DNA of 64,000 bases from Candidatus Omnitrophota bacterium (GTDB lineage Bacteria > Omnitrophota > Omnitrophia > Omnitrophales > Aquincolibacteriaceae), in the NCBI GenBank assembly GCA_035352955.1, contig DAOPYQ010000001.1:165536-229535 (forward strand), read 5' to 3'. Position numbers and translations under genes: made by a program. Shown here one piece after another: positions 1-42,161 of the stretch. Position 1 is the first letter of the stretch. Each line of letters opens with the position of its first letter. The notes under the pieces were generated by a model. It saw only the letters and a program-made list of their open reading frames with translations, did not search any database and was not told the origin of the DNA.

Positions 1-24
1 ATAACAAAAGATCGTTTTACCGGA

Positions 25-3000
25 ATGCCCATTGCCGTTGGTTGGGTAGTTCCGCAGATGACCGCCCTTCTCAACACCGAAACGCTCAGACGGGTTAGTC
101 CGGAAACGCGGGAGAGGTTTTGGGAATATCTTTTTCAAAGAGAGGTGCTGGGGAAGCCGATTCATCCCACGAACCACGGTCCTGCGCTGCGGGCGTTTCT
201 GTTAAGCGACGGGGTCAAAGCCTTGACGGTTGAAGAACTCGAAGCGATGTTCGGGATGTTCCTGTTCGAATATGTTAAAACCCCTTTCAACAAAAATCCG
301 GGGATCCGCGTAAGGGTTCCCGTCAGCCTGCCTGTTTTTTATTTTGCCGAGAAACTTTATGCCTCCCCGCAATGGAAATCGATGACCGATCCCTCTGCGA
401 GGTTGGCGATGATCCGGCTCGTAAACTCGGATCCTTTTGAGTTTGGTGTGGTGACCCCGACCGCCGGGGCTTTTCGTCCCGGTATGCGCGCCACGTGGGG
501 AGGAACGGTGGATTGGACGGTCCCCGCGCTATTCGAAAAAACGTTCGCGGTGCTGCGGCATGCGGCCCAGGAGCTTGACGGGTCGAAAGACCCCGGATCT
601 TTCGAGCAGATCTTCGGCCGATCGCGGCAAAAGATGAAACAGATCCTTGAACAGGTCAATGCCCGTCTGGAGCGTGGCGAAGCGCAGCCGGATGCCGGAT
701 CCGGTCCTCAGACCCCGAAGCCGGACAGCGAAGGGAAGTTGTGGGCGACTGCGCCGGAGGCGCAGAGCGCAGAGCGCAAAGCGCAACGCACAACGAAAAA
801 CGGAGATTCAACGTTCACCGTTGCGCGTGGTGCGTCGAACGCGGACGGAGTCCGCCGCGCCGAACTCCGGACCCAAGCGGGCCTTTTCAGCGAAGAGCAA
901 ACGTGGTTCAACACATTGTCATTCAAAAACCCGGGGGAGAAACAGGAACTTTTTGATTTGATGCTGTCTTTTTTAAGACATGGTGATTTTGTTTATGAGA
1001 ACCGTTATGGTCCGGACGCCGGCGATGTGGAGTATATCCGCGAGCGGGGTTTTTCCCTGCTGAAAGAGCTTTGGGATTCTCCTGGGTTTCAGCGGTTGCA
1101 GACGGCTGAAGAGCGCAGGTCGGTTCTTGGCAGCTTGAAAAACCAACTATTTCAAACGGATTCTTCTACCTTTGCTTCTCCCGTTTCTCTTCCGTTTTTT
1201 CACGCGTTCCTGAGCGAGCAGGCCCTCGGTAAAATGACGGAACCGCAAGACCGGCAGAAAGCGTTGATGTTTTTCGCGCGGTTTTCGGAGAGCCTCGCGC
1301 GCGAATCGGACGGTTTTCTGGCGCTCCTTGAAGGAAGGGGTAACCCGCAGATCTGGAATTCTCCCGAGAAGGAAAAACTCTGGGCAATGATTCAAAAGAT
1401 CATAGTTGCCGATGGGAAGAGGTATCCCGATTTTTTTCCTTCGAAAGCCTTTTCAGCGCTCCAGGATGTGTTGGGAGGCGAAGGGTTCCGGAGACTTACG
1501 GAACCTGCGGAACGAGAAAAGGTTTGGAAGATTCTCAGTACCATTCCGGGGTACGCTGGATGGGAACCCGAGGAAGGCTTGGGTATGTTTAGCAAGCTGA
1601 TCAACGGGCCGGGATTCGCCCGGATTACGGACCCTTCCGAGAGGATGGAACTGTTCCCCATGTTTTTTGAGTTGCTCAATATGCTAAAAAAGACGCGCTC
1701 CCAATATTTTTCAAATGGAAACGTGATCAGCCTTTTCGGCGAATTGCTGGGCGGTAATGGATTTGCCGGAAAGGCGGGGGCGGCCGATCGGAAAGCGGTC
1801 CTTGAGATCGCCCGGCTGTTATTGATGAGGCAAGAGGCAGGAGCTTTTGAGATGTTTAGAAAGTTCTTGGACGTTGTGGACGCGACAGGCGGATCCCAGG
1901 AGTTTTCGGAAGTTCTGGCGGATTTCTTGAAACGATCAGAGAGCGCGGATGGTGACGCGGTAAAAACCCTATTGGCGGAAGAAGCGGTTCAACGACTTGT
2001 CCTGCCGGCGGAGCAGGTGAATGCCCGCCTGACGCGCGGGGAAGTGCAGGCGGTTCCCGGTTTCCGGCCGCCGGTTTCAGGGGAAAAGGAAGGGAAGTTG
2101 TGGTTTGGAACGGCGAAGCCGGAGGACGGAAAACGGATGACGGATGGCGTAAAGCCCGGTTTTTCGCCATCCGACATCCTTCATCCTTCTTCCAAAGGTG
2201 ACGGACGGCTAAAGACAAAGGGTTTTTCGACATCCGACATCCGTTCTCCGCAATCCGTAAGCAAAGGCGGCGAACGGGCGGAGGTCCGGGCCGCGGGAAA
2301 AACTTCGGAGTTTGCGCCGCTGCGGCCGGTGGATCTCGGACGGTATGAATGGTTCCGGCAGATCGCGGGACCTGCCCGGAAAAAAGAAGTGACCGAAATT
2401 GTTCAATCGGTCCATGCCGCGATCCGGCAATATATCAGCGTTCGAGAGCAAGAGCCTGCCTTGCAGGTTTTTGAAAAAATGCTCGGCAACGAGATGTTCG
2501 AAAAGGGCCTGAACGCTGGCGAGCGGATCCTGGCCTTGGAGGCGGCCCAAAAGATCTTGTCAAACAGCGGCGCCCACGAAAACCGGGCGTTCCGGACCTG
2601 GATATTATTGATCGACAGCCGTGAATTTGCGGGGCTTGTGTATCCGGGCGAACGGAGGCGGGTGTGTTTGATCGCCGGTGAGATTCCGCAATATGCGAAA
2701 CACAACAGCCTGTTCACTCTGGAAGGTTTTTGGGATCTGCTCTCGTCAGGATCGACCGAGAAATTGGGCCGCGCGGAACGGTTCTGGATGCTTGAGACCG
2801 CGCGCGCGATCATCAAAAATGTTGAGATCAACCGGAGCGCGATCCTCTCCGAATACCGGAAGCTCCTTGAAAGTCCCGGCTTTGTCCAGCCGCTGGATGC
2901 TGTCGGAGAGCAAGGCTTACTCGCGTCTCATTTGGCTCCCGCGGAACAGCTTAAAATTTTACAGATCGTTCAGACGATCCCTGCCGTTGCCAAGGAACAC

Positions 3001-6000
3001 ACCCCAGAGTTTTTGGGAGAACTCAGAAGCTTTCTGGCCAGCGAGGGGTTTACCCAGATCACGGCTCCGGTTGAACGGGAAGCGGCGCTTGGGATCGTCC
3101 GGAGGGTCCTGAAATATGTCAAAAGTGATTTTGGCCGGGCGATCGAACTCGTTTGGGCCATATTAGGCAGCGAGGAATTTCGGAACCTTTCGGATCCCGA
3201 CGTGCGCCTGAGCTTTTTGGAGATCGTGGACCGGATCTTTCAGTGGGCGGGAGTCGAACGGATGAATGATTTGTGGTCGCTTAAAGAGTCGTTGGCTGCG
3301 GCCAAGTCTTCCGATTTCACCCGGATCCTGAAAGAATTTTCTGAAAAGACCCAAGGAGTGACCGGCGCAATGGCCCGTGCGCGGACGGCACAGGAGGTTT
3401 TTGAAGCAATGCTTCGGATGGCGCCGCAGGTGCAGGCCAGGGAATCTCGCGGGGAACCGCAGGACGTGCAACGCGTCGCGAACGGTGCGCAACGGGGAGT
3501 GGAAGGGAAATTGTGGTTTGGAACGGCGAAGCCGGAGGACGGAAAACGGATGACGGATGGCGTAAAGCCCGGTTTTTCGCCATCCGACATCCTTCATCCT
3601 TCTTCCAAAGGTGACGGACGGCTAAAGACAAAGGATTTTTCGACATCCGACATCCGGCATCCGCAATCCGTAAACGAAGATGGCCGCCGCGCTGAATTAC
3701 GGGAAGAACAGCTGACGGACATGGAACTGAACTGGTTCAACTCTCTCACGTTCCGGAACGGGGAGGAACGACTGGCGTTGTTAGAGGCGCTCGAAACGCT
3801 GGTCCGGCAATCCGGGTATTCTTACGGAAGTTTTTCTTGGGGGAATCCTTCCTGGATCGAAGGAATGAGCGGTTCCTCCACGGATCCCGACGAGATCAAT
3901 GTTCCGATCCTGGATATCCTCAAAAGTTTTTGGGGTTCGCCCGGCTTTGCGGTCCTTTCTGAACCGAAAGAGAGGATCCGAAGTCTCAGGATCGTTAAGA
4001 CGATCCTCACGTTTGTCGGGATGGCGGACTCAGGGGATGCGCTTAACAGGTTTGCCGGAATCCTGGATTCAAGAGGGTTCCAGTCGGTCAAGGACCCGGA
4101 TCTCCGGGAGGCTCTTTTCACCGCGGTGGAAACCCTGTCCGGTGAAACCCGGGGACCGCTTCATCGGGTCCTGGAATTGATGGAACGCTCCTCTTTCGAA
4201 GCGCTCGAAAAGCGCGTGAAGTTGACCCTTATTCCGTTTTTCTCTGTAATGGTTTTCAATGAGATTCCGCTCTCGGTCCAGTATCCTTTTTTCAAAGAAA
4301 AATTTGAAAAATTTTTCCCGGCATTCGCGGATCTTGCCGGTCCGTCCCGGCGGCGCTTAATCGAGGACCGCAAAGAGTTCGTCCGCCAGTTCTTTGCGTC
4401 TCCGGCGATCTCCGAACAGGTCTCTCCGGTGGATTTGAGCCTGGTGTTCTGTTCTCCCGCCTCTGGGGAGGATTTTTTCAGGAGGTTTTGTGAGATCCTG
4501 TCCAGGATCCCTACTGGAATTTCCGGTAGTGATCTCGCACCGTGGGTGCAGGAAGCCGTGAGGATGTTTGACCGGATCCGTTCCCAACTTTCCGCCCGGG
4601 AATCTCGCGGGGAACCGCAGGACGTGCAACGCACAGCGAACGGCGCGCAACGAGCAGTGGAAGGGAAGCTGTGGTTTGAAAAGGCAAAGCCGGAAGACGG
4701 TAGACGGATGACGGATGGAGACAAAGCCGGTTCTTCGCCATCCGCCATCCGTTCTCCGCAATCCGTAAACGAGGATGGCAGTCGCGCAGAGCGCAAAGCG
4801 CAACGCACAACGAAAAACGGAGATTCAACGTTGACCGTTGCGCGTGGTACGTCGAACGCGCCGCAAAGCGGCAGCCGCGCCGCACTAAATCCTGTCGATT
4901 TAGTACGGCTTCGGCAGAACCCCGGTGGTTCTGTCCGAGCCGAGTTGCGGGCGACGGCGGCGGAGTGGCAGGAAGCATACGAAGCCGTGAACGAGTTCGG
5001 GGCGTTGCTGAAATGGAAAGGTGATTACGCCGATCTCAGCGGCGCTCACGGCGATCGGCCTCTCCTGATGGTGCCGAATAACCGCGAACGTCGGATCGAC
5101 TTGATCGATCTCAAAACCCTCCGCGAAAAAACGATTCACGGACGGCCGGTCTCTGAATGGACCGGGAGGGCCGTGAACGATCAGAAGCTTTCGCCGGACA
5201 ACCGCTGGTTCTTTGGTCGCGAAGTGAACGCGATCTCGCATCTTGTGGATCTCGAGAATGGCGCGGATTTTCGGGATGCCGGAGGACGGACGATCACGGA
5301 GATTGTCGACTCCCGGTATGACGCCTACGTGTGGTTCTCGGGCGACAGCAGCATGCTCTTTGTTCTGCAGGGGCCGTTGCAAGTCCTGGAACTTAAAAAG
5401 CCGGACCATCCCCGGGCCTCCGTAGAAAAAATCCGCGAAGCGTTCGGCAACGATGTGAACAATATGGCATTCTCCGACGACGGAACGCTGGCGGCGGTCC
5501 AGTACTCCTATGATAGCAGGATCGAATTGGTCGATCTTGTCCGTGGCGAAAAGGTCCTTGGCCCGGACGGAAAACCCTGGAAAAAGAAAGCGACGAAATA
5601 TACGCAGCTGGAGCCTTTTAAATTCCTGCCGGGCACGCACATTTTCTGGACCCGCGGGTATGAAGGGAACGCTGTGGCCCATGATCCTTACGGCGAAGCG
5701 GATAAACTTTCTCCCGCCCGTCCGCTTTCGGAATTGATCCCGGAATATGCGGACCATCTCCAGATTTCTCCGGACAAAAAGCGGTTGTTTGTGATCAATT
5801 GTCCCGGAAGAAAAATAGGGCTGTCCGACGATACGGAAAACGAGGGCTTCTGGTATGACCTCAAGACGGGGAAGGAGATCTTGATCGGGGGCGAGCCTTT
5901 TTCGAAGAAGCTCGGCAAAGGGTTTACCAGAGCGGAGCTTTCACGCGATGAAAGCTTCCTTTGGGTTTTCCGTTCGATGGAAGATGCGCAACTTCTGGAT

Positions 6001-9000
6001 ACTGTTACCTGGAAGGACCGGACGATCAACGGTGTTAAGTGGGCGGATCTTATCACCCTCCACAACCCCATGTTTCTCGAGGGCGGCCGATTGTTCCTTT
6101 GTCCTGCGGGCAGCGGAATGGGGATGCGGGTCCTGGATCCGGCGAAATTCGAAAAAAATCCTGTTTTCAGGAAATTTATCGAACGTGGAAAACTCGCGGT
6201 TAGAACTTCGATGAAGTTTATTGATGTCTTTGGTTCTCTGGCCGCTGCCGGGACGATCCGGAACGGAACCGAGCTTAGGACTGCCGCGCGATTTCTGATC
6301 GCGATCCGCCATTTTGGAGAATGGTCTGAAAAGCTGAATAATTTTATCCGGGAAGCGGCTCATTCGGAGAATTCTGGCGAAAAGTTCACGGAACTTTGGC
6401 GGGAAATGATACAAGCCGCTGCTGCGGCATCGTGGGATCGTGACCGGATCACGGTGCTTGCGAACCAGTTGATAGAGCGTCTTGAGCGGATCGAAGAACA
6501 ACAAGCAGCCCGTGAGACGCGGGGGGAGCCGCAGACCGCGCAACGCACAGTCAACGGTGCGCAACGGGGAGAGGAAGGGAAGTTGTGGTTTGAAACGGCA
6601 AAGCCGGAAGACGGTAGACGGATGATGGATGGCGTAAAGCCTGGTTTTTCGACATCCGACATTCGTCCTCCGCAATCCGTAAGCGAAGATGGCAGCCGCG
6701 CTGAATTGCGCGGGACGGCCGGTCAGGAGATCTTGGATCCGCAAAGTTTTGATTCGATCCTGGAATTTATCCGGGCCGAGCCTTCCGAGGTTGTGAGGGG
6801 CCGGCGGGCGGAAAGGATGTTCGCGGCTTTTCTGAGCGCGCATCCGAAGGAGGTTAATGAAACAAATCTCGGAAAATTATACCGCGCGATCGAGCCGATT
6901 TGCGGCGAGGCGATCGGGTACGGGATCGCGCTTTTCGAATCGCTTGCCAGGACCTCGGAGTCGGCCCGCGCGAGTTTTAGTGCCGGGAATCTCGAAATTC
7001 TGATCGACCGTTTTCTGGCGACGCCGCCCCGATCGAGTGCCCGTGCTTATTTTCAGGGCATGGTGGCTCGATTTTGGGTGGCCCATCCCGAGGTTTTTGA
7101 CAAGACCGTCGCCGGTTCTCTGATCGAAAAGATCGATCTGGCGCCCACCGAGGGGCGCGATACGTTTCTCAGGTTTTTGGAATATTTTGACCGGCAGGAC
7201 GGTAACGTCTTCGATCCGGAAACGCTCGGTTTGTTCCTCCGAAAATTCGAGAGGGATATGGTCCGGGCGCCGATTGCCAAAAGGTCTTCCATGGATATGG
7301 GTTTATTGAGTGATGTTATCGAAAAGCTTACCTCCAAGACGCAGGTTCTTGATCCCGGGCTTTTCCGGACATACACGGCTCTCGCAAGCATGACGTCCAT
7401 GCCCGGGGGTTACGGTTATGACCGGTATGCCGAAACGCTCGGGGATTTTTTTAGAAAATATTACGGTCTTCAACTCGACAAAGATGTCCTGCATGTGCTG
7501 AGCAGGAGGATCTGGGGACTGGTTTTAGGGGAAAGGACCCAGGGGAAGAAAGGCGAGTTGATCTATTCGTGTCCGTTCCTTGCTTCCTGGGAACAGAATC
7601 TGAGCGCCCTGGCGGAGATCTTTCGGCCGGTGTCCGGGCAGGACCATCTTCCGCAAACGACCGTGGACGTTCTCGAAAAGAGCCTCGTTCTGCTCAGCGA
7701 GCAGGTCGGGGCCCGTCAGACGCGGGGGGAGCCGCAAGCCGCGCAACGCACAGCCAACGGTGCGCAACGGGGAGAGGAAGGGAAGTTGTGGTTTGAAACG
7801 GCAAAGACGGAGGACGGTAGACGGATGACGGATGGCGTAAAGCCTGGTTTTTCGACATCCGCCATCCGTCATCCATTATCCTCCGCCGAAGGCGACGGCC
7901 GAGCCGAGCTGCGCGCGACGGCGGGGGAGTGGACGAAAGCGTTTGAAACGATGCGCGAATTCGGAGCGCTTCTCAAATGGAACGGGAACACCCTGGATCT
8001 TTCAGGAGTTCATTCGAAAAATCCTCTCTTGATGATCATTAATGAGGCCCGGGGCTGGGTGAAGTTGATCGATCTTAAAACGCTGCGCGAGAAGACCGCA
8101 AAGGGGCGGCCGGTTTCCGAATGGATCGGGTGGACGGCTGACGATAGAAAGCTTTCTCCGGATAATCGCTGGTTTTTCTGGCGTGACGCGAGCGGTCTCA
8201 TTCATCTTTTGGATCTTGAGCGTGGCGAAGATTTCAGGGATCCCCAAGGCCGAACGATCGAGAAGATTTCGCCTTCTTCGAAAACGATCATACGAGTCTG
8301 GTTTTCCAGTGACAGTAAAAGTCTCTTTTTTCAGGATGTCTTAGGGCGTTGTTCGATCCTGGAGCTGACGAAATCTAAAATCCCCCGCGTGACGAAAGAA
8401 AAGATCCAGAAGCTGATAGATGCCGGGATCCTCGATTGGGCGTTATCCGATGACGGGACACTGCTTGCCGTGGATCGTGTGTTTCCAGGGAGTGGAAGCG
8501 GGCTCGAACTCATCGATCTTGTCCGGGGAGAAAAGGTTCTAAATGCGGATGGAAGCCTCTGGCGGAAGAGCCTGCCGGATCGCACGTCTCTTGTAAAGTT
8601 TAAGTTTCTTCCGGGAACGCGCATTTTCTGGGCGCGTACTTACGAAGGAAATGCCCAGATCTACGATCCGTTCGGGGAAGCGGCGGTCCTTTCTCCCGCG
8701 GTTCCTCTGGAGGCCTTGATCTCTAAATGCGCCAGCGAGGTTGTTCTCTCTCCGGATAAAAAGCGGTTGTTCGTGATCAATAATCCGGGGGACGGGCAGG
8801 GGGGGATCGATTATCGTAGGAGCGAAGGTTTTTGGTATGACCTCGTGACCGGTCAAGAGGTTATGGTTAAGGGCGAGCCTTTTTCAAAAAAGCTGGGAAA
8901 AGGGTTCGTTAGGGCGACTTTTTCTCCGGATCAGAGCTCTTTGTGGATTTTGTCGTGGGGGAGGGGGGGCACTTTTGGACTTCTGGATCCGCTGACCTGG

Positions 9001-12000
9001 GAGGACCGGAAGATCAACGGTGTAGAGGTCGGTCGCTTGTTGCCGCATGACGTTCCTGAGTTTCTTGGAGAGGGGCGTGTGCTTATTCATACCAGCGGGA
9101 TCGAAAGAAGATTCCGTATACTTGTTCCCGAGAAGATCGAAGGCGACCCTGTTTTGAAGAAGGTGGTGGGGCGCGGGAAATTCGCGCCGGAGGTTTCGAT
9201 GGCAATTCTGGAGAGCCTCGGTTTTCTGACGATGGTGGGTGCGGTACAAAACGGCGCTGAACTTCAAACCGCTCTGGAGTTCCTGACCGCGATACACAAT
9301 TTTATGGAATGGTACAAGCGCTTGGGTGTCTTCATCCAGAAGTTCGATTTTTCCGAAGATCTTAGCGGAAGATTTTCGGCGCTCTGGCACGAAACGATGT
9401 TCGATGCTGCCGGGGTCGCTGGAGATCGTGACCGGATCACGGTGCTTGCGAACCGGCTGATGGATCGTTTTCAGCAGATCGAAAAACAGCAAGTGGCTCG
9501 TGAAATTCGCGGCCAGCCGCAGGACGCGCAACGTGGAACGGACACCCCACGGGGGCTGGGCAAAGAGCGCCCTGACGTGCAACGGGGAGAGGAAGGGAAG
9601 TTGTGGTTTGAAACGGCAAAGCCGGAGGCGCAGAGCGCAGAGCGCAAAGCGCAACGCACAACGAAAAACGGAGATTCAACGTTGACCGTTGCGCGTGGCA
9701 CGTCGAGCGCGCCGCAAAGCGGCGCCCGCGCCGAACTCCGGGCAAAAGAACAGAAAGAAAAGGCGCCCTTTCTGCCGTCGCTGAAATCCATTGAGAAAAA
9801 ACTTAAAAAAGATCCAGGCTACGCCACGGAAAAGAATTTCGAACCGTTTCGGAGGGTTTTGAATGGAGAGGATAAAGAATTCCAAAAAACCTTAGCCTAT
9901 ATGTGCAAGTACGCCTTTCCTGTAGCGTCGTTTTTTTTCTACTATGGGCTGGTTGGCATTGGTTATTTTCTTTTAGCAGTTTTCTTTGTTCTTTTTGGCG
10001 ATCTGACGCTTCTTAACAGCTTGGACAGAGGAGTGATGCCGTATTTACTATTTCTGACTTGGCCGAGTTTTGTTCTAGGTGGGGGAATAGCGTATTTCTT
10101 TGATGAGGTTCGAATAAATGTCCAGCGTATGGCCGCGGCATTTCGGGCCCTTTCTATTTTTTTGAAATACAATGCGTTCTTTTCGCGTCCTGAGTTTGAG
10201 ATGCTAGCTTGGGGAAGAATTATTTCTAAAAAAGTTTTGGAGCATAATGTCTGGGAACGTCTCCCCGAATCTCAAAAGCATCTTTTGCAAAAACTCGCTT
10301 TTGGAGTTTTAAATCAGATGTACCAGTGGGGGTTTTCGGAAAAGCTCGCTGATAAATTTGCGCGGGATGTTAGCGATTTTACGTCTAAATATCCCAATAG
10401 CCGCGAAGACATCATCGCTATTCTGACACAAGCCTCGCAACGATACCACGCCGGCGCAAAAGAGGCCGAAATCGTCGCGTTTGTTTCTGAAAGACTTAAA
10501 AAAATCGAGGAGCAGAAAAGAGCCCGTGAGGCGCGGGGGGAACCGCAGGACGCGCAACGCGCGACGGACAACGTACAACGATCGTCCGAAGGGAAGTTGT
10601 GGTTTGAAACGGAAAAACCGGAGGCGCAGAGCGCAAAGCGCAACGCGCAACGCACAACGAAAAACGGAGATGCAACGTTGACCGTTGCGCGTGGTACGTT
10701 GAGCGCGCCGCAAAGCGACGCCCGCGCTGAAAAGCGGGAACGGAATTTTGACTGGTTCTGGAAAATGCCGCATGGGGCGGAGAAGACCCAGACGTGGCAG
10801 CTCGTCAAAAACATTCTCGGGGTTTTAAAGAAACAAAGGACCTCGGACGGGGAAAGGGATCTGGATGCTCTAAAGGATTTTCTGGTTTCGAAGGAGTTTG
10901 TTGGTCTGGCGGCCGGTGACAGGGTGAGGCTCCTGGCGCTTTTAGGGCGGTTTGCAGGAAAAGCCGAATGGATCGCGGTTCAACACCTGCAATTTTTATT
11001 TCGCGGTGAAGTCCAGGCGATCATGGATCCTGTCGAGAGGGCAAAGCTTTTTGAAGTGGTTGATGTGTTCGCCGGAAATTTGCAGCAGTTCGGATGGGAA
11101 TTCGCGTCCTGCAACTGGTTCCTTTATCAAATGAGGCTGTTTTCCGGTAAAAAAGATCCTCTGGTACAAGCGCGGGTGTGGGAGATCGCAAAAACGATCG
11201 CGGCCCGAAGAGAGGGTGACAGCCGGTGGGCTATTTCCGCGTTCGGCCTTTTTCTTAATTCGGAGAAATTTTCAAAGATCCTGGATCCTGGCGAGCGGCT
11301 AAAGGTATTGGAGATCGCCGCGGCGATCGCGCACTACTCTAAGGATATGACCGAAAGCGCGCAGGACGAGGACGGTGAATCGTATCTTCGGTGGGCCGGA
11401 TTTGACGGATTGCAGTCCTTGCTGGTCGCCCCGGGGTTTGTGAAGATCGAAGATCCTGCCTTGAGGATGAGCGCTCTCGAGATCGCAAAGATCCTTGCGA
11501 CGCGGCCCCAGTGGAACGAGGGCGGATTTTTGGGGGAATTCCTGCAATGTCTCGAAGAAGCCTCCGGCTCCCCGGAGTTTCCCGGCGTGTGGAAGGATTT
11601 TTCGAGGGATTTTGGCCAGGCCGTGACTGAAGAAGCGAAACGGGCCGCGGCAGAAACCGCTTATCAGACCCTCGTGCATCTTGCGATCCAGGCCAAAGCC
11701 CGTGAAGTGCGCGGCCAGGCGCAAATTGCGCAACGCGCAACGCACACCCCGCGGGGGTTGGACACAGAGCGCCCTGACGCACAACGAGAAGTGGAAGGGA
11801 AGTTGTGGTTTGAAACGGCAAAACCGGAGGACGGATCCCACGGGACTGCTTCGCCGAAACGGATGACGGATGGCGTAAAGCCCGGTTTTTCGAAATCCGC
11901 CATCCGCCATCCATTATTCTCCGCCGAAGGCGGCGCCCGAGCTGAATTACGCGCGACGGAAGCCGTGCCCGCGAAAACGTGGCGCGAGAAGATCGCGTCG

Positions 12001-13926
12001 AAGGTTCGGGAGACATTGATCGAACGGTGCACTTTTGATCGGCTTATCCGGAAGATCGAAAAAGATCCACGTAAGGCGACCCGCACCCGGCTCAAGCCGG
12101 TCCTCCGTGAACTTGGAGATCCGGGCTGGCTGTCCCAACGTTTGCTCGGCATCCATGACGTTTTTGCGCTTGTCTTCAACTTTCCGTTCTTCGGGATAGC
12201 GTATCTCCTGTCAGTCATCAATTTTGTGGCGGCCTTGCTTTTCGTTCCAAAGTTACTGATCGGTCTGGTTTTGCTCGGTATCGACCGGCTCCTGGAGCTC
12301 GGCGGCAAGGTCTTTTCGTCGGTGGCGTTTTTCCATTCCAAATATTCCGACTGGCTGGAGGTTCTCAATGATGCGGAAGACGGCGACACAGTCGATGGAT
12401 TTTTTACCTGGCTTGAGGCCCTTTGTAACCGGAGAACGACCGATACAGGTTGGATCGTGGAAATTGCCCGGAGACGCTCCATTTCCGCGCTCAAAGCCTT
12501 GAAAGTGTTCGTTCACGCCAATCCCGCGCTGGATCCGGAAGAATTCATGGGAGTTTTGGCGGAGATTTTGGCCCAGCCCGATCTGACCCGCGATCGTCGC
12601 CAGGTTCTTTGCGAGGTTTTGGTCGATTTCTACCGCATCGATGTTCCGCCGGAGGTGCTCGAGGAGATCCTTCTGTCGGCGCAGTCCACTTGGCGGGGAC
12701 AGTATCGTTCGTGGACGCCAATGGAAAAAACGAGGAACATGACAACGCTTCTGGATTTCCTGCGGCGGTTCGGGAGAGATATTCCGGGATTTGAGGCAAA
12801 GCCCTTAGACCAAAGGCTTCTCGTGATCGAGGCGTTCAAAAAAGATTTTGAACAGCTGATGGCGCAGTTCGGCGCGCGGCAAACGCGCGGGGAACCACAA
12901 ACCGTGCAACGCGCAACGGATAACGTACAACGATCGACGGAAGGGAAGTTATGGCTTGAAACGGAAAAACCGGAGGACGGAAAACGGATGACGGATGGAG
13001 TAAAACCTGGTTTTTCGCCATCCGCCATCCGCCATCCATTATCCTCCGCCGAAGGCGGCGACCGCGCCGAACTGCGCATCGTGACGGCTGAGCAGTCAGG
13101 GATCGCGGAGGAAGCGGTATCGGTCATTCTGACCCCCGGCAGGGTCCGTATTGAAAAACTCGGGAAATTGGCGGAGTCGATCGAACGAACGGTCCATGCG
13201 ATGACGCTCGACCGGTTTGCGGAGGCTTTGCGCGCGGCGGCGGTGAAGCGCCTTTCGATGATCGGGAGAAATGCGCCGCTTTTTTCAGCCCCGAAAGTGG
13301 ACGCGACGCTCGCGGAGAAAGCCGTCCGTTATTTTATGGATCAATTCAAGAAGGTGGATTCCAAGGGAGGTTTTGCCGTGGCGTTCGATTCCGAGGCGGA
13401 CCGGGCCCTTGAAGAGGCGCTCTTCCAAATGAGAGACCGGATCGGGCTGGCGATCTTTCCCAAAGAGTTGGTCAAACGGCTCAGCCCCAAGACACTTCGC
13501 GGCGTTCCTTATAAGGTTGTCCATGGTTTTCGGAGGATGAGACTGCCGCTTTCGGTGGAGAACAGCGGCGCGGTACCCGTGATAGGTGGCAAGGCGCGGG
13601 TTTCCCGAGAGGAAGACGGGGAGATCTTCAGCGTTCTTATGGAGGCGTCCGATGTGGAAGGAGAACCGTTCCTTGAAGTGGTGGAGAAGGTCGTCCAGAT
13701 CCTGAGCGGGCTTGTGGCTGCCGGGCAGGTCAAAAAAGCGGGTGAGTTGAAAGATCTTCAAAAGGCGGAGGAGATCAAGGCGGCTCTTCTCAAAAAGCTT
13801 TTCGAGGACCAGGGCGCTTCAGGGGTCATTGCTATCCGGGGCGGCAAGATCTTTGTGGACCGGGCGCTTCTGAGGGATTTTCTGACCCAGTACCTGGCGG
13901 CGAAGGTAATTGGGCAGGCGGCATAA
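25..13926 (+). CDS. Giant multidomain protein of 4633 aa, 5' end possibly off-window. It carries helical repeats, two beta-propeller-like blocks, two multi-TM blocks and ten conserved linker modules
   Basis: One stop-free frame of 13.9 kb. Frame 1 has no stop between position 1 and the ATG at 25. The antisense frames are broken into short ORFs. The product contains recognisable blade-like motifs (SPDNRWFF, SDDGTLAAV, SPDKKRLFVIN) and two hydrophobic helix clusters. No named family is recognised. Confidence 0.8.
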   Translation: MPIAVGWVVPQMTALLNTETLRRVSPETRERFWEYLFQREVLGKPIHPTNHGPALRAFLLSDGVKALTVEELEAMFGMFLFEYVKTPFNKNPGIRVRVPVSLPVFYFAEKLYASPQWKSMTDPSARLAMIRLVNSDPFEFGVVTPTAGAFRPGMRATWGGTVDWTVPALFEKTFAVLRHAAQELDGSKDPGSFEQIFGRSRQKMKQILEQVNARLERGEAQPDAGSGPQTPKPDSEGKLWATAPEAQSAERKAQRTTKNGDSTFTVARGASNADGVRRAELRTQAGLFSEEQTWFNTLSFKNPGEKQELFDLMLSFLRHGDFVYENRYGPDAGDVEYIRERGFSLLKELWDSPGFQRLQTAEERRSVLGSLKNQLFQTDSSTFASPVSLPFFHAFLSEQALGKMTEPQDRQKALMFFARFSESLARESDGFLALLEGRGNPQIWNSPEKEKLWAMIQKIIVADGKRYPDFFPSKAFSALQDVLGGEGFRRLTEPAEREKVWKILSTIPGYAGWEPEEGLGMFSKLINGPGFARITDPSERMELFPMFFELLNMLKKTRSQYFSNGNVISLFGELLGGNGFAGKAGAADRKAVLEIARLLLMRQEAGAFEMFRKFLDVVDATGGSQEFSEVLADFLKRSESADGDAVKTLLAEEAVQRLVLPAEQVNARLTRGEVQAVPGFRPPVSGEKEGKLWFGTAKPEDGKRMTDGVKPGFSPSDILHPSSKGDGRLKTKGFSTSDIRSPQSVSKGGERAEVRAAGKTSEFAPLRPVDLGRYEWFRQIAGPARKKEVTEIVQSVHAAIRQYISVREQEPALQVFEKMLGNEMFEKGLNAGERILALEAAQKILSNSGAHENRAFRTWILLIDSREFAGLVYPGERRRVCLIAGEIPQYAKHNSLFTLEGFWDLLSSGSTEKLGRAERFWMLETARAIIKNVEINRSAILSEYRKLLESPGFVQPLDAVGEQGLLASHLAPAEQLKILQIVQTIPAVAKEHTPEFLGELRSFLASEGFTQITAPVEREAALGIVRRVLKYVKSDFGRAIELVWAILGSEEFRNLSDPDVRLSFLEIVDRIFQWAGVERMNDLWSLKESLAAAKSSDFTRILKEFSEKTQGVTGAMARARTAQEVFEAMLRMAPQVQARESRGEPQDVQRVANGAQRGVEGKLWFGTAKPEDGKRMTDGVKPGFSPSDILHPSSKGDGRLKTKDFSTSDIRHPQSVNEDGRRAELREEQLTDMELNWFNSLTFRNGEERLALLEALETLVRQSGYSYGSFSWGNPSWIEGMSGSSTDPDEINVPILDILKSFWGSPGFAVLSEPKERIRSLRIVKTILTFVGMADSGDALNRFAGILDSRGFQSVKDPDLREALFTAVETLSGETRGPLHRVLELMERSSFEALEKRVKLTLIPFFSVMVFNEIPLSVQYPFFKEKFEKFFPAFADLAGPSRRRLIEDRKEFVRQFFASPAISEQVSPVDLSLVFCSPASGEDFFRRFCEILSRIPTGISGSDLAPWVQEAVRMFDRIRSQLSARESRGEPQDVQRTANGAQRAVEGKLWFEKAKPEDGRRMTDGDKAGSSPSAIRSPQSVNEDGSRAERKAQRTTKNGDSTLTVARGTSNAPQSGSRAALNPVDLVRLRQNPGGSVRAELRATAAEWQEAYEAVNEFGALLKWKGDYADLSGAHGDRPLLMVPNNRERRIDLIDLKTLREKTIHGRPVSEWTGRAVNDQKLSPDNRWFFGREVNAISHLVDLENGADFRDAGGRTITEIVDSRYDAYVWFSGDSSMLFVLQGPLQVLELKKPDHPRASVEKIREAFGNDVNNMAFSDDGTLAAVQYSYDSRIELVDLVRGEKVLGPDGKPWKKKATKYTQLEPFKFLPGTHIFWTRGYEGNAVAHDPYGEADKLSPARPLSELIPEYADHLQISPDKKRLFVINCPGRKIGLSDDTENEGFWYDLKTGKEILIGGEPFSKKLGKGFTRAELSRDESFLWVFRSMEDAQLLDTVTWKDRTINGVKWADLITLHNPMFLEGGRLFLCPAGSGMGMRVLDPAKFEKNPVFRKFIERGKLAVRTSMKFIDVFGSLAAAGTIRNGTELRTAARFLIAIRHFGEWSEKLNNFIREAAHSENSGEKFTELWREMIQAAAAASWDRDRITVLANQLIERLERIEEQQAARETRGEPQTAQRTVNGAQRGEEGKLWFETAKPEDGRRMMDGVKPGFSTSDIRPPQSVSEDGSRAELRGTAGQEILDPQSFDSILEFIRAEPSEVVRGRRAERMFAAFLSAHPKEVNETNLGKLYRAIEPICGEAIGYGIALFESLARTSESARASFSAGNLEILIDRFLATPPRSSARAYFQGMVARFWVAHPEVFDKTVAGSLIEKIDLAPTEGRDTFLRFLEYFDRQDGNVFDPETLGLFLRKFERDMVRAPIAKRSSMDMGLLSDVIEKLTSKTQVLDPGLFRTYTALASMTSMPGGYGYDRYAETLGDFFRKYYGLQLDKDVLHVLSRRIWGLVLGERTQGKKGELIYSCPFLASWEQNLSALAEIFRPVSGQDHLPQTTVDVLEKSLVLLSEQVGARQTRGEPQAAQRTANGAQRGEEGKLWFETAKTEDGRRMTDGVKPGFSTSAIRHPLSSAEGDGRAELRATAGEWTKAFETMREFGALLKWNGNTLDLSGVHSKNPLLMIINEARGWVKLIDLKTLREKTAKGRPVSEWIGWTADDRKLSPDNRWFFWRDASGLIHLLDLERGEDFRDPQGRTIEKISPSSKTIIRVWFSSDSKSLFFQDVLGRCSILELTKSKIPRVTKEKIQKLIDAGILDWALSDDGTLLAVDRVFPGSGSGLELIDLVRGEKVLNADGSLWRKSLPDRTSLVKFKFLPGTRIFWARTYEGNAQIYDPFGEAAVLSPAVPLEALISKCASEVVLSPDKKRLFVINNPGDGQGGIDYRRSEGFWYDLVTGQEVMVKGEPFSKKLGKGFVRATFSPDQSSLWILSWGRGGTFGLLDPLTWEDRKINGVEVGRLLPHDVPEFLGEGRVLIHTSGIERRFRILVPEKIEGDPVLKKVVGRGKFAPEVSMAILESLGFLTMVGAVQNGAELQTALEFLTAIHNFMEWYKRLGVFIQKFDFSEDLSGRFSALWHETMFDAAGVAGDRDRITVLANRLMDRFQQIEKQQVAREIRGQPQDAQRGTDTPRGLGKERPDVQRGEEGKLWFETAKPEAQSAERKAQRTTKNGDSTLTVARGTSSAPQSGARAELRAKEQKEKAPFLPSLKSIEKKLKKDPGYATEKNFEPFRRVLNGEDKEFQKTLAYMCKYAFPVASFFFYYGLVGIGYFLLAVFFVLFGDLTLLNSLDRGVMPYLLFLTWPSFVLGGGIAYFFDEVRINVQRMAAAFRALSIFLKYNAFFSRPEFEMLAWGRIISKKVLEHNVWERLPESQKHLLQKLAFGVLNQMYQWGFSEKLADKFARDVSDFTSKYPNSREDIIAILTQASQRYHAGAKEAEIVAFVSERLKKIEEQKRAREARGEPQDAQRATDNVQRSSEGKLWFETEKPEAQSAKRNAQRTTKNGDATLTVARGTLSAPQSDARAEKRERNFDWFWKMPHGAEKTQTWQLVKNILGVLKKQRTSDGERDLDALKDFLVSKEFVGLAAGDRVRLLALLGRFAGKAEWIAVQHLQFLFRGEVQAIMDPVERAKLFEVVDVFAGNLQQFGWEFASCNWFLYQMRLFSGKKDPLVQARVWEIAKTIAARREGDSRWAISAFGLFLNSEKFSKILDPGERLKVLEIAAAIAHYSKDMTESAQDEDGESYLRWAGFDGLQSLLVAPGFVKIEDPALRMSALEIAKILATRPQWNEGGFLGEFLQCLEEASGSPEFPGVWKDFSRDFGQAVTEEAKRAAAETAYQTLVHLAIQAKAREVRGQAQIAQRATHTPRGLDTERPDAQREVEGKLWFETAKPEDGSHGTASPKRMTDGVKPGFSKSAIRHPLFSAEGGARAELRATEAVPAKTWREKIASKVRETLIERCTFDRLIRKIEKDPRKATRTRLKPVLRELGDPGWLSQRLLGIHDVFALVFNFPFFGIAYLLSVINFVAALLFVPKLLIGLVLLGIDRLLELGGKVFSSVAFFHSKYSDWLEVLNDAEDGDTVDGFFTWLEALCNRRTTDTGWIVEIARRRSISALKALKVFVHANPALDPEEFMGVLAEILAQPDLTRDRRQVLCEVLVDFYRIDVPPEVLEEILLSAQSTWRGQYRSWTPMEKTRNMTTLLDFLRRFGRDIPGFEAKPLDQRLLVIEAFKKDFEQLMAQFGARQTRGEPQTVQRATDNVQRSTEGKLWLETEKPEDGKRMTDGVKPGFSPSAIRHPLSSAEGGDRAELRIVTAEQSGIAEEAVSVILTPGRVRIEKLGKLAESIERTVHAMTLDRFAEALRAAAVKRLSMIGRNAPLFSAPKVDATLAEKAVRYFMDQFKKVDSKGGFAVAFDSEADRALEEALFQMRDRIGLAIFPKELVKRLSPKTLRGVPYKVVHGFRRMRLPLSVENSGAVPVIGGKARVSREEDGEIFSVLMEASDVEGEPFLEVVEKVVQILSGLVAAGQVKKAGELKDLQKAEEIKAALLKKLFEDQGASGVIAIRGGKIFVDRALLRDFLTQYLAAKVIGQAA
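655..885 (+). repeat. Linker module 1, type B (..EGKLW..AQSAERKAQRTTKNGDSTFTVARG..RAELR), with GCGCAACG..CGTTGCGCG hairpin
   Basis: Near-identical nucleotide block shared with modules 4, 7 and 8 and with the intergenic elements near 17.6 and 18.7 kb. Confidence 0.85.
2017..2297 (+). repeat. Linker module 2, type A (EGKLWFGTAKPEDGKRMTDGVKPGFSPSDI..), with internal tandem duplication of the PGFSxSDIxxP unit
   Basis: Near-identical to module 3 at the DNA level. Contains the hairpin acggatgacggatggcg..cgccatccgacatcc. Confidence 0.85.
3433..3705 (+). repeat. Linker module 3, type A with internal duplication
   Basis: RGEPQDVQRVANGAQRGVEGKLWFGTAKPEDGKRMTDGVKPGFSPS.. Hairpin stem of 14/15 bp at about 3547-3595. 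Confidence 0.85.
4592..4890 (+). repeat. Linker module 4, composite type A plus type B
   Basis: RGEPQDVQRTANGAQRAVEGKLWFEKAKPEDGRRMTDG.. followed by AERKAQRTTKNGDSTLTVARG. The type B hairpin cgcaacgcacaacg..cgttgaccgttgcg lies at about 4786-4850. Confidence 0.85.
6506..6712 (+). repeat. Linker module 5, type A
   Basis: RGEPQTAQRTVNGAQRGEEGKLWFETAKPEDGRRMMDGVKPGFSTSDIRPPQSVSEDGSRAELR. Confidence 0.85.
7710..7915 (+). repeat. Linker module 6, type A
   Basis: RGEPQAAQRTANGAQRGEEGKLWFETAKTEDGRRMTDGVKPGFSTSAIRHP..RAELR. The hairpin has a perfect 13-bp stem (ggatgacggatgg/ccatccgtcatcc). Confidence 0.85.
9494..9742 (+). repeat. Linker module 7, type B with extra insert (GTDTPRGLGKERPDVQR)
   Basis: ..EGKLWFETAKPEAQSAERKAQRTTKNGDSTLTVARGTSSAPQSGARAELR. 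Confidence 0.85.
10520..10738 (+). repeat. Linker module 8, type B
   Basis: RGEPQDAQRATDNVQRSSEGKLWFETEKPEAQSAKRNAQRTTKNGDATLTVARG.. Confidence 0.85.
11698..11955 (+). repeat. Linker module 9, type A with insert
   Basis: ..EVEGKLWFETAKPEDGSHGTASPKRMTDGVKPGFSKSAIRHP..RAELR. Confidence 0.85.
12870..13078 (+). repeat. Linker module 10, type A
   Basis: RGEPQTVQRATDNVQRSTEGKLWLETEKPEDGKRMTDGVKPGFSPSAIRHP..RAELR. Confidence 0.85.
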
Positions 13927-13977: not shown

Positions 13978-14005
13978 TTGACACGTCCTTCCTTATCAAT
14001 ATAAT
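13978..14005 (+). promoter_or_regulatory. Near-consensus sigma70 promoter, TTGACA-16nt-TATAAT
   Basis: ttgaca at 13978-13983 and tataat at 14000-14005, about 60 nt upstream of the CDS at 14067. Confidence 0.6.
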
Positions 14006-14066: not shown

Positions 14067-15245
14067 ATGGAAAACGGGCGGAAGAGCGGTTTTTTTATTT
14101 TTTTTATAGCTTTTCTAATGGCTTTCAGTGTGGTTGCTCTCGCTGAAGAGGCCGATGAGACGACTCCAGATGATCTTGAGGACCAGTATCGCGAGGAACC
14201 GGTACCGGCTTCCCAGGAAGTGACGCTGGCCGGAACTGAGACGCCGGTAACGCCGTCGCCCGCGCCAGTCAAGCCGCCGGTGTCAGAACCGGTGGTTGCA
14301 GCTACGGCGCCTGTGGTTTCCCAACCGGAAGCACAAGCTCCGGTAGCGAGTTCTGAGGGAACTTCTGAAAAACAAGCCCCGGGAGTGAGCCCCGAGGCAG
14401 CGGCTCAAGAACAAGCTCTTAACGCGGTAGAAGCGGCGGCACCGGTTGCGCCGGCCGCAGCGGTTGCTGAAAAAACAGTCGCGGTTGCGCCGGTTAAGGC
14501 CCCGGCGGTCGCTGCACCGGTCCAGACTCCCGCGCTGCCTTCAGGGCTCGTGGAGATCGGCGGGTATAAATATCCGGTTTACATGTTCGTTCCGCGGGAA
14601 TATCAGGCGGACCGGACGTATTCCATGATCATGGTTGCTCCGGCAAAAGATGTCACGGCGCAGGACCAGATCGAATACTTGAGCAAGTTGGCGTCGCGGC
14701 GGAATGTTTTTATCCTTGCGCCCTACGTTCTTTGGCCCAAGTCGGGAACGGTTCCGTACACGCTTGACGAATGGCTTTTGTCGGTGAAGAACGACGTTCT
14801 TCAGAGGTATCCGATCAACAAGAAACGTGTTTTTCTTCTCGGGAAGGATTCGGGGGCGGAGTACGCGGCTTATCTCGCGACGAAATACCCCGCGGAATTT
14901 TCGGGAGTCGCCCTTTTGGGTCAGGCGTGGGACGGAACTTTCGCGCCGCTGGTGCATCCGCAGTCGGGCGCGGCCAATCAGATGCCTTTTTATATTGCCC
15001 TGAAAGAGGGATCGGACGCGAAGGCCCGGAACCAGCAGTGGCTCGATAAGTTCCAGAAGGACGGTTATTCGCTTCATCTGGTCGAGTATCAGAAGGACGA
15101 AGACCTGACGCCCGTTGATTTTAAACAGTCGGTCCTGGATTGGCTCGAATCGTCCAGCGACAATTGGGCCAGCGTGCAGGCCAAAGACCGGCAGGGATGG
15201 AAGGGCAAGCTCAAAACCGGCGTGAAGAATTTCTTCGCGGTCTAA
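14067..15245 (+). CDS. Secreted or membrane-anchored protein. N-terminal signal/TM, Ala/Pro/Val-rich linker, C-terminal alpha/beta-hydrolase-like (esterase-like) domain
   Basis: N-terminal hydrophobic segment FFIFFIAFLMAFSVVALA. Low-complexity PVxP/APV tract of about 130 aa. C-terminal region with LLGKDSGAEYAAYL and an alpha/beta-like arrangement. The GxSxG motif is not canonical. Confidence 0.4.
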   Translation: MENGRKSGFFIFFIAFLMAFSVVALAEEADETTPDDLEDQYREEPVPASQEVTLAGTETPVTPSPAPVKPPVSEPVVAATAPVVSQPEAQAPVASSEGTSEKQAPGVSPEAAAQEQALNAVEAAAPVAPAAAVAEKTVAVAPVKAPAVAAPVQTPALPSGLVEIGGYKYPVYMFVPREYQADRTYSMIMVAPAKDVTAQDQIEYLSKLASRRNVFILAPYVLWPKSGTVPYTLDEWLLSVKNDVLQRYPINKKRVFLLGKDSGAEYAAYLATKYPAEFSGVALLGQAWDGTFAPLVHPQSGAANQMPFYIALKEGSDAKARNQQWLDKFQKDGYSLHLVEYQKDEDLTPVDFKQSVLDWLESSSDNWASVQAKDRQGWKGKLKTGVKNFFAV

Positions 15246-17570: not shown

Positions 17571-17645
17571 CAGCTCAACGCGCAAGGCGCGACGCTCAAC
17601 GAAGAAATTTTACGTTGCGCGTTGACCGTTGTGCGTTGCGCGAAA
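17571..17645. repeat. Intergenic copy of the palindromic GCGCAACG/CGTTGCGCG element (ilvN-ilvC spacer)
   Basis: caacgcgcaaggcgcgacgctcaacgaagaaattttacgttgcgcgttgaccgttgtgcgttgcgcg. Shares cgcaacgcacaacgg (here in reverse complement) and cgttgaccgttg with the type B modules of the giant ORF. Confidence 0.75.
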
Positions 17646-18664: not shown

Positions 18665-18732
18665 GCTCGACGCGCAGAGCGCAACGATCAACGAGGCGAT
18701 TTTACGTTATGCGTTGACTGTTGCGCGTTGCA
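18665..18732. repeat. Intergenic copy of the palindromic element (ilvC-leuA spacer)
   Basis: gacgcgcagagcgcaacgatcaacgaggcgattttacgttatgcgttgactgttgcgcgttgcacc. The gcgcagagcgcaacg and gttgac(c/t)gttgcgcg segments are identical to those in the giant-ORF modules. Confidence 0.75.
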
Positions 18733-32156: not shown

Positions 32157-32182
32157 TTGATGGAAAATCAGGACAGAAAGGA

Positions 32183-41402: not shown

Positions 41403-42156
41403 GATCATCGAGATCGACCGGGAAAAGTGCAACGGTTGTGGTTTGTGTACCACGGCCTGCGCGGAAGGGGCGCTGGTGCTTGATCAGGAGAAGAAAGCGG
41501 TGCTTGCGAAAGAGATCTTTTGTGACGGGATGGGGGCGTGCCTTGATGTTTGTCCGACTGGAGCTTTGAAGATCGTTGAGAAAGAAAGCCAGGGTTATGA
41601 TCCGAAAGCCGCGTACGAACACGTTCTGAAGACGCAGGGTGCGGATGCCGCAAAAAAAGTTCACGGAGCGGCGCAACTTCATGCCCCGGCTCCTCACGCG
41701 CACGGTTTCGGAGGATGTCCCGGATCGATGGCTCGCGAGTTTAAACGCCCGGCGTCCCCATCGGCGGAAAATCCCGCGGGGTTCGTTCAATCGGAGTTAA
41801 GCCAGTGGCCGATCCAGCTTCATCTCATTTCGCCCGTGGCGCCTTATTTTAAGGAGTGCGATCTTTTGATCGCTGCCGATTGTACCGCTTTCACGCTGGG
41901 AAGCTTTCACCGGGACCTTCTGAAGGGGAAGCGCCTGGTTATCGCGTGTCCGAAACTTGATGAAACCTCGGAATACGTTGAGAAGATCGCGGAGTTGCTG
42001 AAGCACAATACGGTCTATTCATTGACGGTCGTGATCATGGAGGTTCCGTGCTGCTCAGGGCTTATGAGGATCGTCCAAGAAGCGGTAGAATTGTCGAGGA
42101 CGCACCTTCCGGTCAAGCGGGTCGTGATCGGATTGGACGGAAACATTCGGAATTGA
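41389..42156 (+). CDS. 4Fe-4S dicluster domain protein with Cys-rich C-terminal domain
   Basis: CNGCGLCTTAC and CDGMGACLDVCP ferredoxin motifs. C-terminal CPKLD..VPCCSGL. Confidence 0.6.
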   Translation: MAKRKIIEIDREKCNGCGLCTTACAEGALVLDQEKKAVLAKEIFCDGMGACLDVCPTGALKIVEKESQGYDPKAAYEHVLKTQGADAAKKVHGAAQLHAPAPHAHGFGGCPGSMAREFKRPASPSAENPAGFVQSELSQWPIQLHLISPVAPYFKECDLLIAADCTAFTLGSFHRDLLKGKRLVIACPKLDETSEYVEKIAELLKHNTVYSLTVVIMEVPCCSGLMRIVQEAVELSRTHLPVKRVVIGLDGNIRN

Positions 42157-42161
42157 AAAAC

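Follow-up and report, generated by a model that had tools for sequence, protein, structure and literature searches.

The bacterial phylum Omnitrophota is known for its giant genes (bioRxiv 10.1101/2023.11.21.568195; 10.64898/2026.06.07.730766), and a puzzle attached to the encoded proteins is whether they act as megadalton single chains or as cut pieces. Cleavage of these giants has been speculated upon, the points of cleavage being stated as unknown (West-Roberts et al. 2023; 10.1101/2023.11.21.568195); in published work this lack of known cleavage points is said to block even structure prediction. Here, we analyse one such gene, found at the start of a 64,000-nucleotide (nt) stretch of DNA from Candidatus Omnitrophota bacterium (GenBank assembly GCA_035352955.1, contig DAOPYQ010000001.1, positions 165,536–229,535; the whole stretch is hereafter called ‘the window’), which an original prediction, made from the letters alone, had picked out as encoding a giant ‘beads-on-a-string’ protein. 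We see that its modules are separated by homologous linkers, each ending in a pentapeptide, R-[S/A]-E-x-R, that also marks the module junctions of a wider family of relatives; and we propose, with a probability of roughly 40% for the reading as a whole, that the product is a giant member of this family: a polyprotein that would be cut at its junction motifs, with disposable, hairpin-bearing spacers in between. New here, beyond the known occurrence of giant open reading frames (ORFs) in an uncultivated lineage, are the motif at the junctions, terminal domains that stay constant, and hairpins built from 7-nt (‘heptad’) units; neither West-Roberts et al. (2023) nor Nielsen & Lui (2026) mentions the motif, the constant terminal domains, the linkers or the hairpins, and a text search of the literature for the motif strings returned nothing relevant.

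Frame 1 of the forward strand stays open from the first letter of the window to a stop codon at 13924–13926, giving 4,641 sense codons with no internal stop when positions 1–13926 are translated. The first ATG lies at nt 25 and has no in-frame stop on its 5′ side, so that the frame runs past the window edge. Window positions 4067–25245 are base-identical to a locus on NCBI GCA_035403665.1, contig DAONFQ010000001.1 (167,553 bp; a metagenome-assembled genome), where the giant gene, at about 52,707–80,021 on the complementary strand and next to that of HNX67974.1, has a product called at 9,104 amino acids (aa), of which the window holds the C-terminal 51%; the start of the gene is ~13.4 kb upstream. 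The original prediction, that the ORF is open at its 5′ edge and that the gene may be longer than the part seen, is borne out on both counts. Within the window, the protein consists of 11 modules (220–527 aa) split by 10 homologous linkers (68–119 aa), the DNA of which carries hairpins of two sequence ‘flavours’, A and B, described further below (P0001 denotes the closest relative):

1–13926, + strand: 3′ part of the giant ORF, 4,641 codons plus its stop (public record: 9,104 aa)
1–660, + strand: module 0, end of a helical module that starts upstream of the window
661–870, + strand: linker 1 (70 aa), flavour-B heptad hairpin at ~774–833
871–2022, + strand: module 1, helical repeats carrying F..ITDP.ER
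2023–2289, + strand: linker 2 (89 aa), flavour-A hairpin at 2121–2193 plus an extra copy resembling the 3′ arm
2290–3435, + strand: module 2, helical repeats
3436–3702, + strand: linker 3 (89 aa), flavour-A hairpin at 3534–3606 plus an extra copy resembling the 3′ arm
3703–4593, + strand: module 3, helical
4594–4950, + strand: linker 4 (119 aa), flavour-A hairpin at 4704–4752, flavour-B hairpin at 4798–4843 and small hairpins at 4861–4950
4951–6507, + strand: module 4, WD40-like beta-propeller plus helical tail
6508–6711, + strand: linker 5 (68 aa), flavour-A hairpin at ~6617–6668
6712–7710, + strand: module 5, no paralogue within the window beyond the shared module tail and linker
7711–7914, + strand: linker 6 (68 aa), flavour-A hairpin at 7809–7881, including a perfect 15-bp stem
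7915–9495, + strand: module 6, second WD40-like beta-propeller, paralogous to module 4
9496–9741, + strand: linker 7 (82 aa), flavour-B hairpin at 9644–9699
9742–10521, + strand: module 7, a membrane module; hydrophobic cluster, nt 9922–10029
10522–10737, + strand: linker 8 (72 aa), flavour-B hairpin at 10624–10711
10738–11697, + strand: module 8, helical repeats of the family of modules 1 and 2
11698–11952, + strand: linker 9 (85 aa), flavour-A hairpin at 11858–11915
11953–12873, + strand: module 9, a membrane module; hydrophobic cluster, nt 12142–12297; counterpart of the penultimate module of P0001
12874–13077, + strand: linker 10 (68 aa), flavour-A hairpin at 12979–13044
13078–13923, + strand: module 10, C-terminal ~285-aa family signature domain, helical bundle plus alpha/beta unit, ending ...GQAA

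The modules belong to several families, namely helical repeats (modules 0–3 and 8), WD40-like propellers (4 and 6), small membrane modules (7 and 9), a singleton (5) and the C-terminal domain (10), as expected from the dissimilar ‘beads’ originally described. The recurring motif noted for the helical repeats, F..(I/L)(T/S)(D/E)P.ER...L, was located at nt 1087–1762, 2497–3238, 3946 and 10897–11269, in modules that are mutually paralogous; the two divergent propeller-like blocks (~520 aa each; 4951–6507 and 7915–9495) share 51% identity (E = 3e-175) and match WD40 proteins when run as a profile against the PDB (PkwA at 6.5e-8; also G-beta, WDR61 and RACK1); and the two hydrophobic clusters fall at aa 3308–3343 and 4048–4099. 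Between the two propeller paralogues, the ratio of non-synonymous to synonymous substitution (dN/dS) is 0.28 with an excess of third-position differences, indicating that the sequence is coding and that the modules are under purifying selection as protein; that gene and family are real is, in our judgement, very likely. None of the 11 modules reached the cut-off for any Pfam or NCBIfam family, the RTX, cadherin and Big domains that the original prediction had also failed to see included; subthreshold noise comprised WD40 at 0.095, NucS_C and an ATP-synthase b match. The C-terminal domain, taken at first to be unique, indeed has no paralogue inside the giant protein over its ~285 aa, but turns out to be the signature of a family; and the remark that giants of this kind occur in uncultivated lineages agrees with the reputation of the host phylum. 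The earlier description is thus incomplete rather than wrong: it missed the repeated conserved linker, the family-wide pentapeptide, the C-terminal family signature and the hairpins of the linkers.

All linkers share one layout, with A-R-x-x-R-G-[EQ]-x-Q at the start, EGKLW at the centre (10 copies) and R-A-E-x-R at the end. Their residues are 74% disorder-promoting and 15% hydrophobic, as compared with 55% and 35% for the modules, and at the level of DNA they form repeats of 200–300 nt whose copies are 60–92% identical. A purine-rich, Shine-Dalgarno-like 25-mer, GAAGGGAAGTTGTGGTTTGAAACGG, is identical in five linkers (6574–6598, 7777–7801, 9592–9616, 10588–10612 and 11794–11818) and present with one or two mismatches in four more; its synonymous sites are conserved, in contrast to those of the linker ends. 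Several candidate functions for the linker were considered and dropped: a 2A-like ‘NPG’ skip is present in linker 4 only; the spacing of the Shine-Dalgarno-like GGAG...TTG/GTG is wrong for internal initiation; a dnaX-like frameshift cassette would use a −1 frame whose stop after ‘GTTTGA’ is not kept at L003, the locus of P0001; and inteins are excluded, the linkers being too short and disordered.

The pentapeptide that ends all 10 linkers of the window also separates modules in each of the relatives found. R[SA]ExR occurs 10 times in the 4,641 aa of the giant ORF and never in the window's other 42 ORFs, which total 15,703 aa; the slightly broader pattern R[SAN]E.[RH] is found 17 times in P0001, 16 in P0025, 13 in P0028 and 10 in P0004, against 0.9, 0.6, 0.3 and 0.5 copies, respectively, in residue shuffles. 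Working along the relatives from the N-terminus, the first copy comes directly after a conserved N-terminal domain, whilst the last copy of the broader pattern lies ~255–306 aa from the C-terminus in nearly all complete or near-complete members (exceptions: P0011, 368; P0028, 454); in between, a receiver domain recognised by Pfam in P0011 (1940–2048) is bracketed by RSESR at 1917 and 2068. The motif's 103 instances keep strictly to its five positions and show no constraint in the residues on either side. At the level of codons, those underlying A-R-x-x-R-G and R-A-E-L-R in the window vary synonymously whilst the residues stay fixed (Arg as CGT/CGC/CGG/AGG, and in RAELR also as CGA; Leu as CTC/TTA/TTG/CTG), and in the P0001 gene the serine of the motif is written both as TCN (6) and AGY (11), and its arginines both as CGN and AGR. 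Such switches beneath fixed residues are hard to square with conservation at the DNA level or with recent copying, and speak for a signal at the level of the peptide; the junction motif is therefore probably a functional peptide signal.

To collect the relatives, aa 3508–4641 were searched exhaustively with HMMER against 1.84 billion representative proteins. No more than 31 proteins (P0001–P0031) were found, nearly all matching through the last ~285 aa, a domain that always sits at the extreme C-terminus. Their lengths include 7,743, 4,795, 4,362, 3,408, 3,231, 3,191, 2,730 and 2,618 aa, and wherever a hit has been given a taxon, it is Omnitrophota or Omnitrophica. A scan of metagenomes gave four further loci, with the ORF of L006 (at least 3,622 aa) containing ten motifs and short linkers of the form AR..R-[ED]LW-RSE.R; a linker-alignment scan of GTDB genomes, with a hairpin-encoded peptide as its pattern, found no relative. 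L003, from Joint Genome Institute (JGI) sample 3300077324 (Ga0643591_000007, 1–26232), holds two family giants in tandem on one strand, 11,941 aa and then, after a gap of 38 nt, 7,743 aa; the same C-terminal domain closes each of them (...GQAA and ...KQSA).

The family is made up of a constant C-terminal end of ~285 aa, variable cargo modules and, in full-length relatives, an N-terminal domain. The protein of the window has both the ~285-aa domain at its extreme C-terminus and modules delimited by R[SA]ExR far above chance. Its C-terminal domain is 58% identical to the tail of P0001 and 21–52% identical to 23 others; an AlphaFold2 model built from a 25-sequence alignment (predicted local distance difference test score, pLDDT, 83) has it as a helical bundle with an alpha/beta unit, for which a comparison with the PDB gave no convincing neighbour in structure or sequence. 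Cargo domains in distant members include Response_reg, GNAT, HATPase_c, His_Phos_1, ABC1, Peptidase_M48 and an ARMT1-like domain. Nearly all members end in -[A/S]-A (QAA, KAA, QSA, ASA, MSA), reminiscent of C-terminal degradation/recognition tags.

At the opposite end, P0001, P0007, P0011, P0017, P0019, P0022 and P0030 share an N-terminal domain of ~600–700 aa with a signal-anchor-like hydrophobic helix. D90-x-H92, E120 and H474-x-E476 are invariant across the seven sequences, and the 28 residues that separate the His from the Glu equal the spacing in Bcr135 (H85/E113) and in RRSP (H3902/E3930), a site-specific TIKI-family endopeptidase of MARTX toxins (PMC6254334). We assign with moderate confidence a resemblance to the TIKI/TraB/erythromycin-esterase hydrolases; Foldseek and Pfam/sequence profiles gave no significant support for a TIKI-like assignment, and the domain differs from the TIKI/TraB/PrgY/erythromycin-esterase/ChaN superfamily in having a ~290-aa helical insertion that splits the core, and an Asp rather than a Glu as its first acidic residue. 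That it should itself be the protease is doubtful.

The DNA of the linkers contains strong, imperfect palindromes. Flavour A, GGATGACGGATGGCG...CGCCATCCGTCATCC, encodes RMTDGVKPGFS.S.IRHP, and flavour B, GCGCAACGCACAACG...CGTTGACCGTTGCGC, encodes AQRTTKNGDSTLTVARG; linker 4 carries both, and linkers 2 and 3 an additional partial copy. The hairpin arms are built from 7-nt units, the stems having ~6 bp and one mismatch per unit. A tandem signal of period 7 was found in 11 regions of the window, all of them in linkers, with none at periods 5, 6, 8 or 9. Six of seven folds of flavour-A regions have z-scores of −2.7 to −4.1 (linker 9, −1.1), and in a sliding fold scan the linker windows average z = −1.34 with 18% below −3, compared with −0.15 and 2.3% for the modules. 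Covariation in flavour A is weak (3 of 13 pairs), since heptad repeats let the register slip; Rfam, searched on both strands, returned only subthreshold microRNA-like matches that merely flag the palindromes. Across the whole 64 kb, hairpins with 22-nt arms number five in linkers, one in the ilvN–ilvC spacer and one terminator-like stem at the far end, the last being a strong hairpin with a T-run at 63895–63952, unrelated to the heptad type. A second heptad-type hairpin lies between cistrons downstream of the giant gene:

17579–17642, + strand: heptad-type hairpin of the flavour-B kind, ilvN–ilvC intergenic spacer
18672–18727, + strand: heptad-type hairpin, ilvC–leuA intergenic spacer

The linker hairpins thus look like members of a population of elements akin to REP (repetitive extragenic palindromic) sequences, one that also lives between cistrons. 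In P0001, the 17 linkers hold several unrelated sequence families of heptad hairpin in two slots, before and after GELW, some of them pairing across it. The same gene has a composite heptad hairpin, GACCACA-type then CATCC-type units, placed in frame in a loop of the N-terminal domain that is short in other family members (L003:4624–4699; aa 542–566), which is evidence that heptad elements can insert into coding sequence. In the more distant relatives L006 and L004 the motifs are present but a period-7 signal is not, making the hairpins secondary; the peptide linker was there before them, and they are either its passengers, specific to certain lineages, or an RNA feature that it gained later. 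A Logan contig of 4,032 nt from SRR5007244 (L002) starts at approximately window nt 13032, inside the hairpin of linker 10, suggesting that when genes like this one are assembled from short reads, the assembly breaks at the repeated linkers.

How, then, might the frame, the module and linker anatomy, the conserved peptide, the family and the hairpins, all of them observed, fit together? In our model, the giant product would be a polyprotein precursor and the junction pentapeptide the recognition or cleavage site of a site-specific endopeptidase, perhaps the family's own N-terminal TIKI-like domain. A strict, context-free 5-mer ahead of every module is most economically explained by recognition by a single protein, and most simply by a processing endopeptidase. 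In the sub-lineage of the window a second Arg-rich motif, A-R-x-x-R-G, may be read as closing each module; the 68–119-aa stretch between the two would then be excised in its entirety as a disordered spacer, which would explain the tolerance of arbitrary, hairpin-encoded peptide. A disposable spacer of this kind could serve as a safe harbour for REP-like hairpins of 7-nt units, read through in frame. Processing at the junction motif we put forward tentatively, at somewhat less than even odds. Extended to its fullest, the model would make R-[S/A]-E-x-R the processing site of a class of Omnitrophota giants in which an endopeptidase of their own, N-terminal and TIKI-like, cuts the chain into tens of separate proteins, and in which the spacers are dual-coded with previously undescribed, 7-nt-periodic hairpins acting on a 27-kb mRNA (in stability, processing or ribosome pacing); in this form we consider it unlikely.

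Saying this, a number of points weigh against the polyprotein model. The centre of the linker, ‘GAAGGGAAGTTGTGG’, is almost invariant even at third codon positions, and the Leu of the central motif is TTG in 8 of 10 copies here and in 14 of 16 at L003, as compared with 17% in neighbouring ORFs; this bias points to an extra constraint at the nucleotide level, or to recent homogenisation, that the polyprotein model does not account for. The AlphaFold2 model of the C-terminal domain positions RAELR at the start of its first helix, at low confidence (pLDDT ~51). The protein of the window is assumed to have an N-terminal domain by analogy with P0001 and others, and we know of no TIKI-family protease with specificity for R[SA]ExR. 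Lastly, the motif could be a structural cap or a docking site.

This last possibility defines the main rival, in which the protein, as has been suggested for other Omnitrophota giants, remains one uncleaved, membrane-anchored polypeptide, a tethered scaffold that holds many modules together, R[SA]ExR and AR..RG acting as caps, hinges or docking motifs at the borders of its modules. The membrane modules within the chain and the signal-anchor-like N-termini of the relatives fit a membrane-tethered array, the modelled placement of RAELR at a helix start would suit a cap, and published work treats Omnitrophota giants as intact and membrane-associated, with cleavage only speculated. A strict 5-mer with free flanks, recurring across unrelated folds and in distant relatives, is however typical of a site that some trans-acting factor recognises, not of a cap specific to one fold, and the two Arg-rich motifs bracket a spacer that is disordered, highly variable and tolerant of insertion; we hold the scaffold to be the less probable reading, if one to be taken seriously.

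A second explanation concerns the hairpins alone, and is compatible with either the polyprotein or the scaffold: they may have an RNA role of their own, protecting the 27-kb mRNA from 3′-exonucleases, marking it for processing, or pausing ribosomes for co-translational folding. REP elements classically stabilise upstream mRNA. Enrichment of structure in linkers only, the occupation of the same two linker slots by several unrelated heptad-hairpin families in two genomes, and the presence of hairpins of the same kind between the ilv–leu cistrons are all in line with such a role, as would be the position of the 3′ slot, ~35–45 codons past the end of the preceding module and thus roughly the length of the ribosomal exit tunnel. 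Yet L006 and L004 have the linker motifs without heptad hairpins, which are accordingly dispensable for the family; the copy in the N-terminal-domain loop of P0001 looks like an opportunistic insertion; and covariation is weak, with slippage of register, in flavour A. An RNA function is, to us, rather improbable.

Far less probable is that the linker in its entirety is a selfish repeat that spread by insertion or duplication, much as Rickettsia palindromic elements or miniature inverted-repeat transposable elements do, its peptide motifs reflecting no more than recent ancestry and gene conversion. In-frame palindromic insertions are known from Rickettsia, and the identity between linker copies, the invariance of the central motif at synonymous sites, and the duplication or combination of hairpin units in linkers 2, 3 and 4 are what such a repeat would give; the terminal motifs, by contrast, are synonymously free with their residues fixed, the Ser (TCN/AGY) and Arg (CGN/AGR) switches included, and R[SA]ExR also turns up in distant relatives with neither the long linker nor the hairpins, linker-free junctions having been checked. 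An assembly or annotation artefact, with separate genes or collapsed repeats fused into one ORF as the original prediction had asked to be considered, is scarcely credible: repeats of this size and similarity can mislead short-read assemblers, and L002 does start inside linker 10, but 10 junctions lie in one frame with no stop (chance ~3^-10), the modules have no start context of their own, the same architecture is seen in independent samples and assemblies (P0001 from JGI; L006; P0004 and P0025 from NCBI), and the flanking genes recur, identical, on 10 contigs of up to 0.2–1 Mb.

Turning to the surroundings of the gene, the host is identified by four neighbouring proteins, each of which matches exactly an NCBI entry under the name Candidatus Omnitrophota bacterium, and the neighbourhood contains ilvBNC, leuA, aroE, pilD, aroC, aroK, dprA, topA and a XerC-like recombinase. 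Further along, 30837–50524 is occupied by a long cluster for the synthesis and transport of lipid A, 3-deoxy-D-manno-octulosonic acid (Kdo) and the lipopolysaccharide (LPS) core (WaaA, LpxK, two lipid A acyltransferases, at least five GT9 heptosyltransferase-like proteins, KdsB, an SIS/CBS protein resembling KdsD, and LptC/LptA), from which it follows that the host has an outer membrane; the setting of the giant gene is the ordinary chromosome of an outer-membrane bacterium. No intrinsic terminator was detected 3′ of the giant ORF. Between its stop and the next gene, at 13978–14005, lies a perfect sigma-70 consensus promoter (TTGACA-16 nt-TATAAT; 12/12 matches). That next gene, directly downstream (14067–15245), encodes 392 aa with a weak esterase/alpha-beta-hydrolase-like signal at approximately residues 239–290 and no close characterised relative; its candidacy as the protease is unsupported, this weak esterase-like match being all that was found and the gene not being kept beside P0001 in L003.

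For Omnitrophota giants more widely, the junction motif provides a map of module boundaries, a rule for cutting in silico, and a testable hypothesis of cleavage with a candidate protease. If confirmed, this would amount to a polyprotein system on a bacterial chromosome, in which the cargo can be swapped while the ends stay constant. Heptad hairpins that are read in frame are a new case of coding sequence colonised by repeat elements, and would also explain the fragmentation of such genes in short-read assemblies.

Amongst described systems, the nearest are the Omnitrophota giants themselves, whether ‘Archaeovorins’, multi-enzyme or repeat-scaffold types, with which our protein shares its phylum, a very long ORF and internal transmembrane helices. 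The cargo is likewise similar, WD40 and helical repeats in the window and receiver, GNAT, HATPase and phosphatase modules in the relatives; the enzymatic and regulatory cargo of the distant members matches the ‘multi-enzyme’ giants of Nielsen & Lui (2026). At 9,104 aa the protein falls below the 10-kaa and 30-kaa thresholds of the published surveys, its L003 relative being 11,941 aa, and in contrast to the Archaeovorin/dockerin-type giants of West-Roberts et al. (2023) the 11 modules of the window gave no Pfam match to dockerin, TSP3, SecA_DEAD, C39 or S8.

Should the protein be cleaved, it would resemble the MARTX toxins, which are giant precursors with constant ends, a variable train of effectors and an in-cis protease that cuts the linkers. 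Membership of that group is excluded, the modules of the window showing no RTX/glycine-rich repeats or cysteine protease domain in Pfam/NCBIfam and the junction motif being a different one. Viral polyproteins (flavivirus, picornavirus) offer a further parallel, in that gene-sized modules of unrelated fold are joined in one ORF with a short, strict motif and interspersed membrane modules; the giant gene nonetheless sits among housekeeping genes (ilv, leu, aro, LPS) on the chromosome of a cell and no viral protease fold was found, so that the parallel is one of analogy only, and membership is excluded here too.

As for the hairpins, we know of no described family with heptad geometry. General scans of the window ORFs, without a dedicated test, turned up no RAYT (IS200/IS605-like Y1 transposase) domain. 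Where REP elements are typically extragenic, here two copies are intergenic and most of those seen lie in frame inside an ORF; and, as a difference from both REP and Rickettsia palindromic elements, the stems consist of 7-nt units, each with one mismatch, and belong to several sequence families unrelated to one another. What is held in common with both is a short, imperfect palindrome that occurs between cistrons as well as in frame, where it adds peptide to tolerant regions of the protein.

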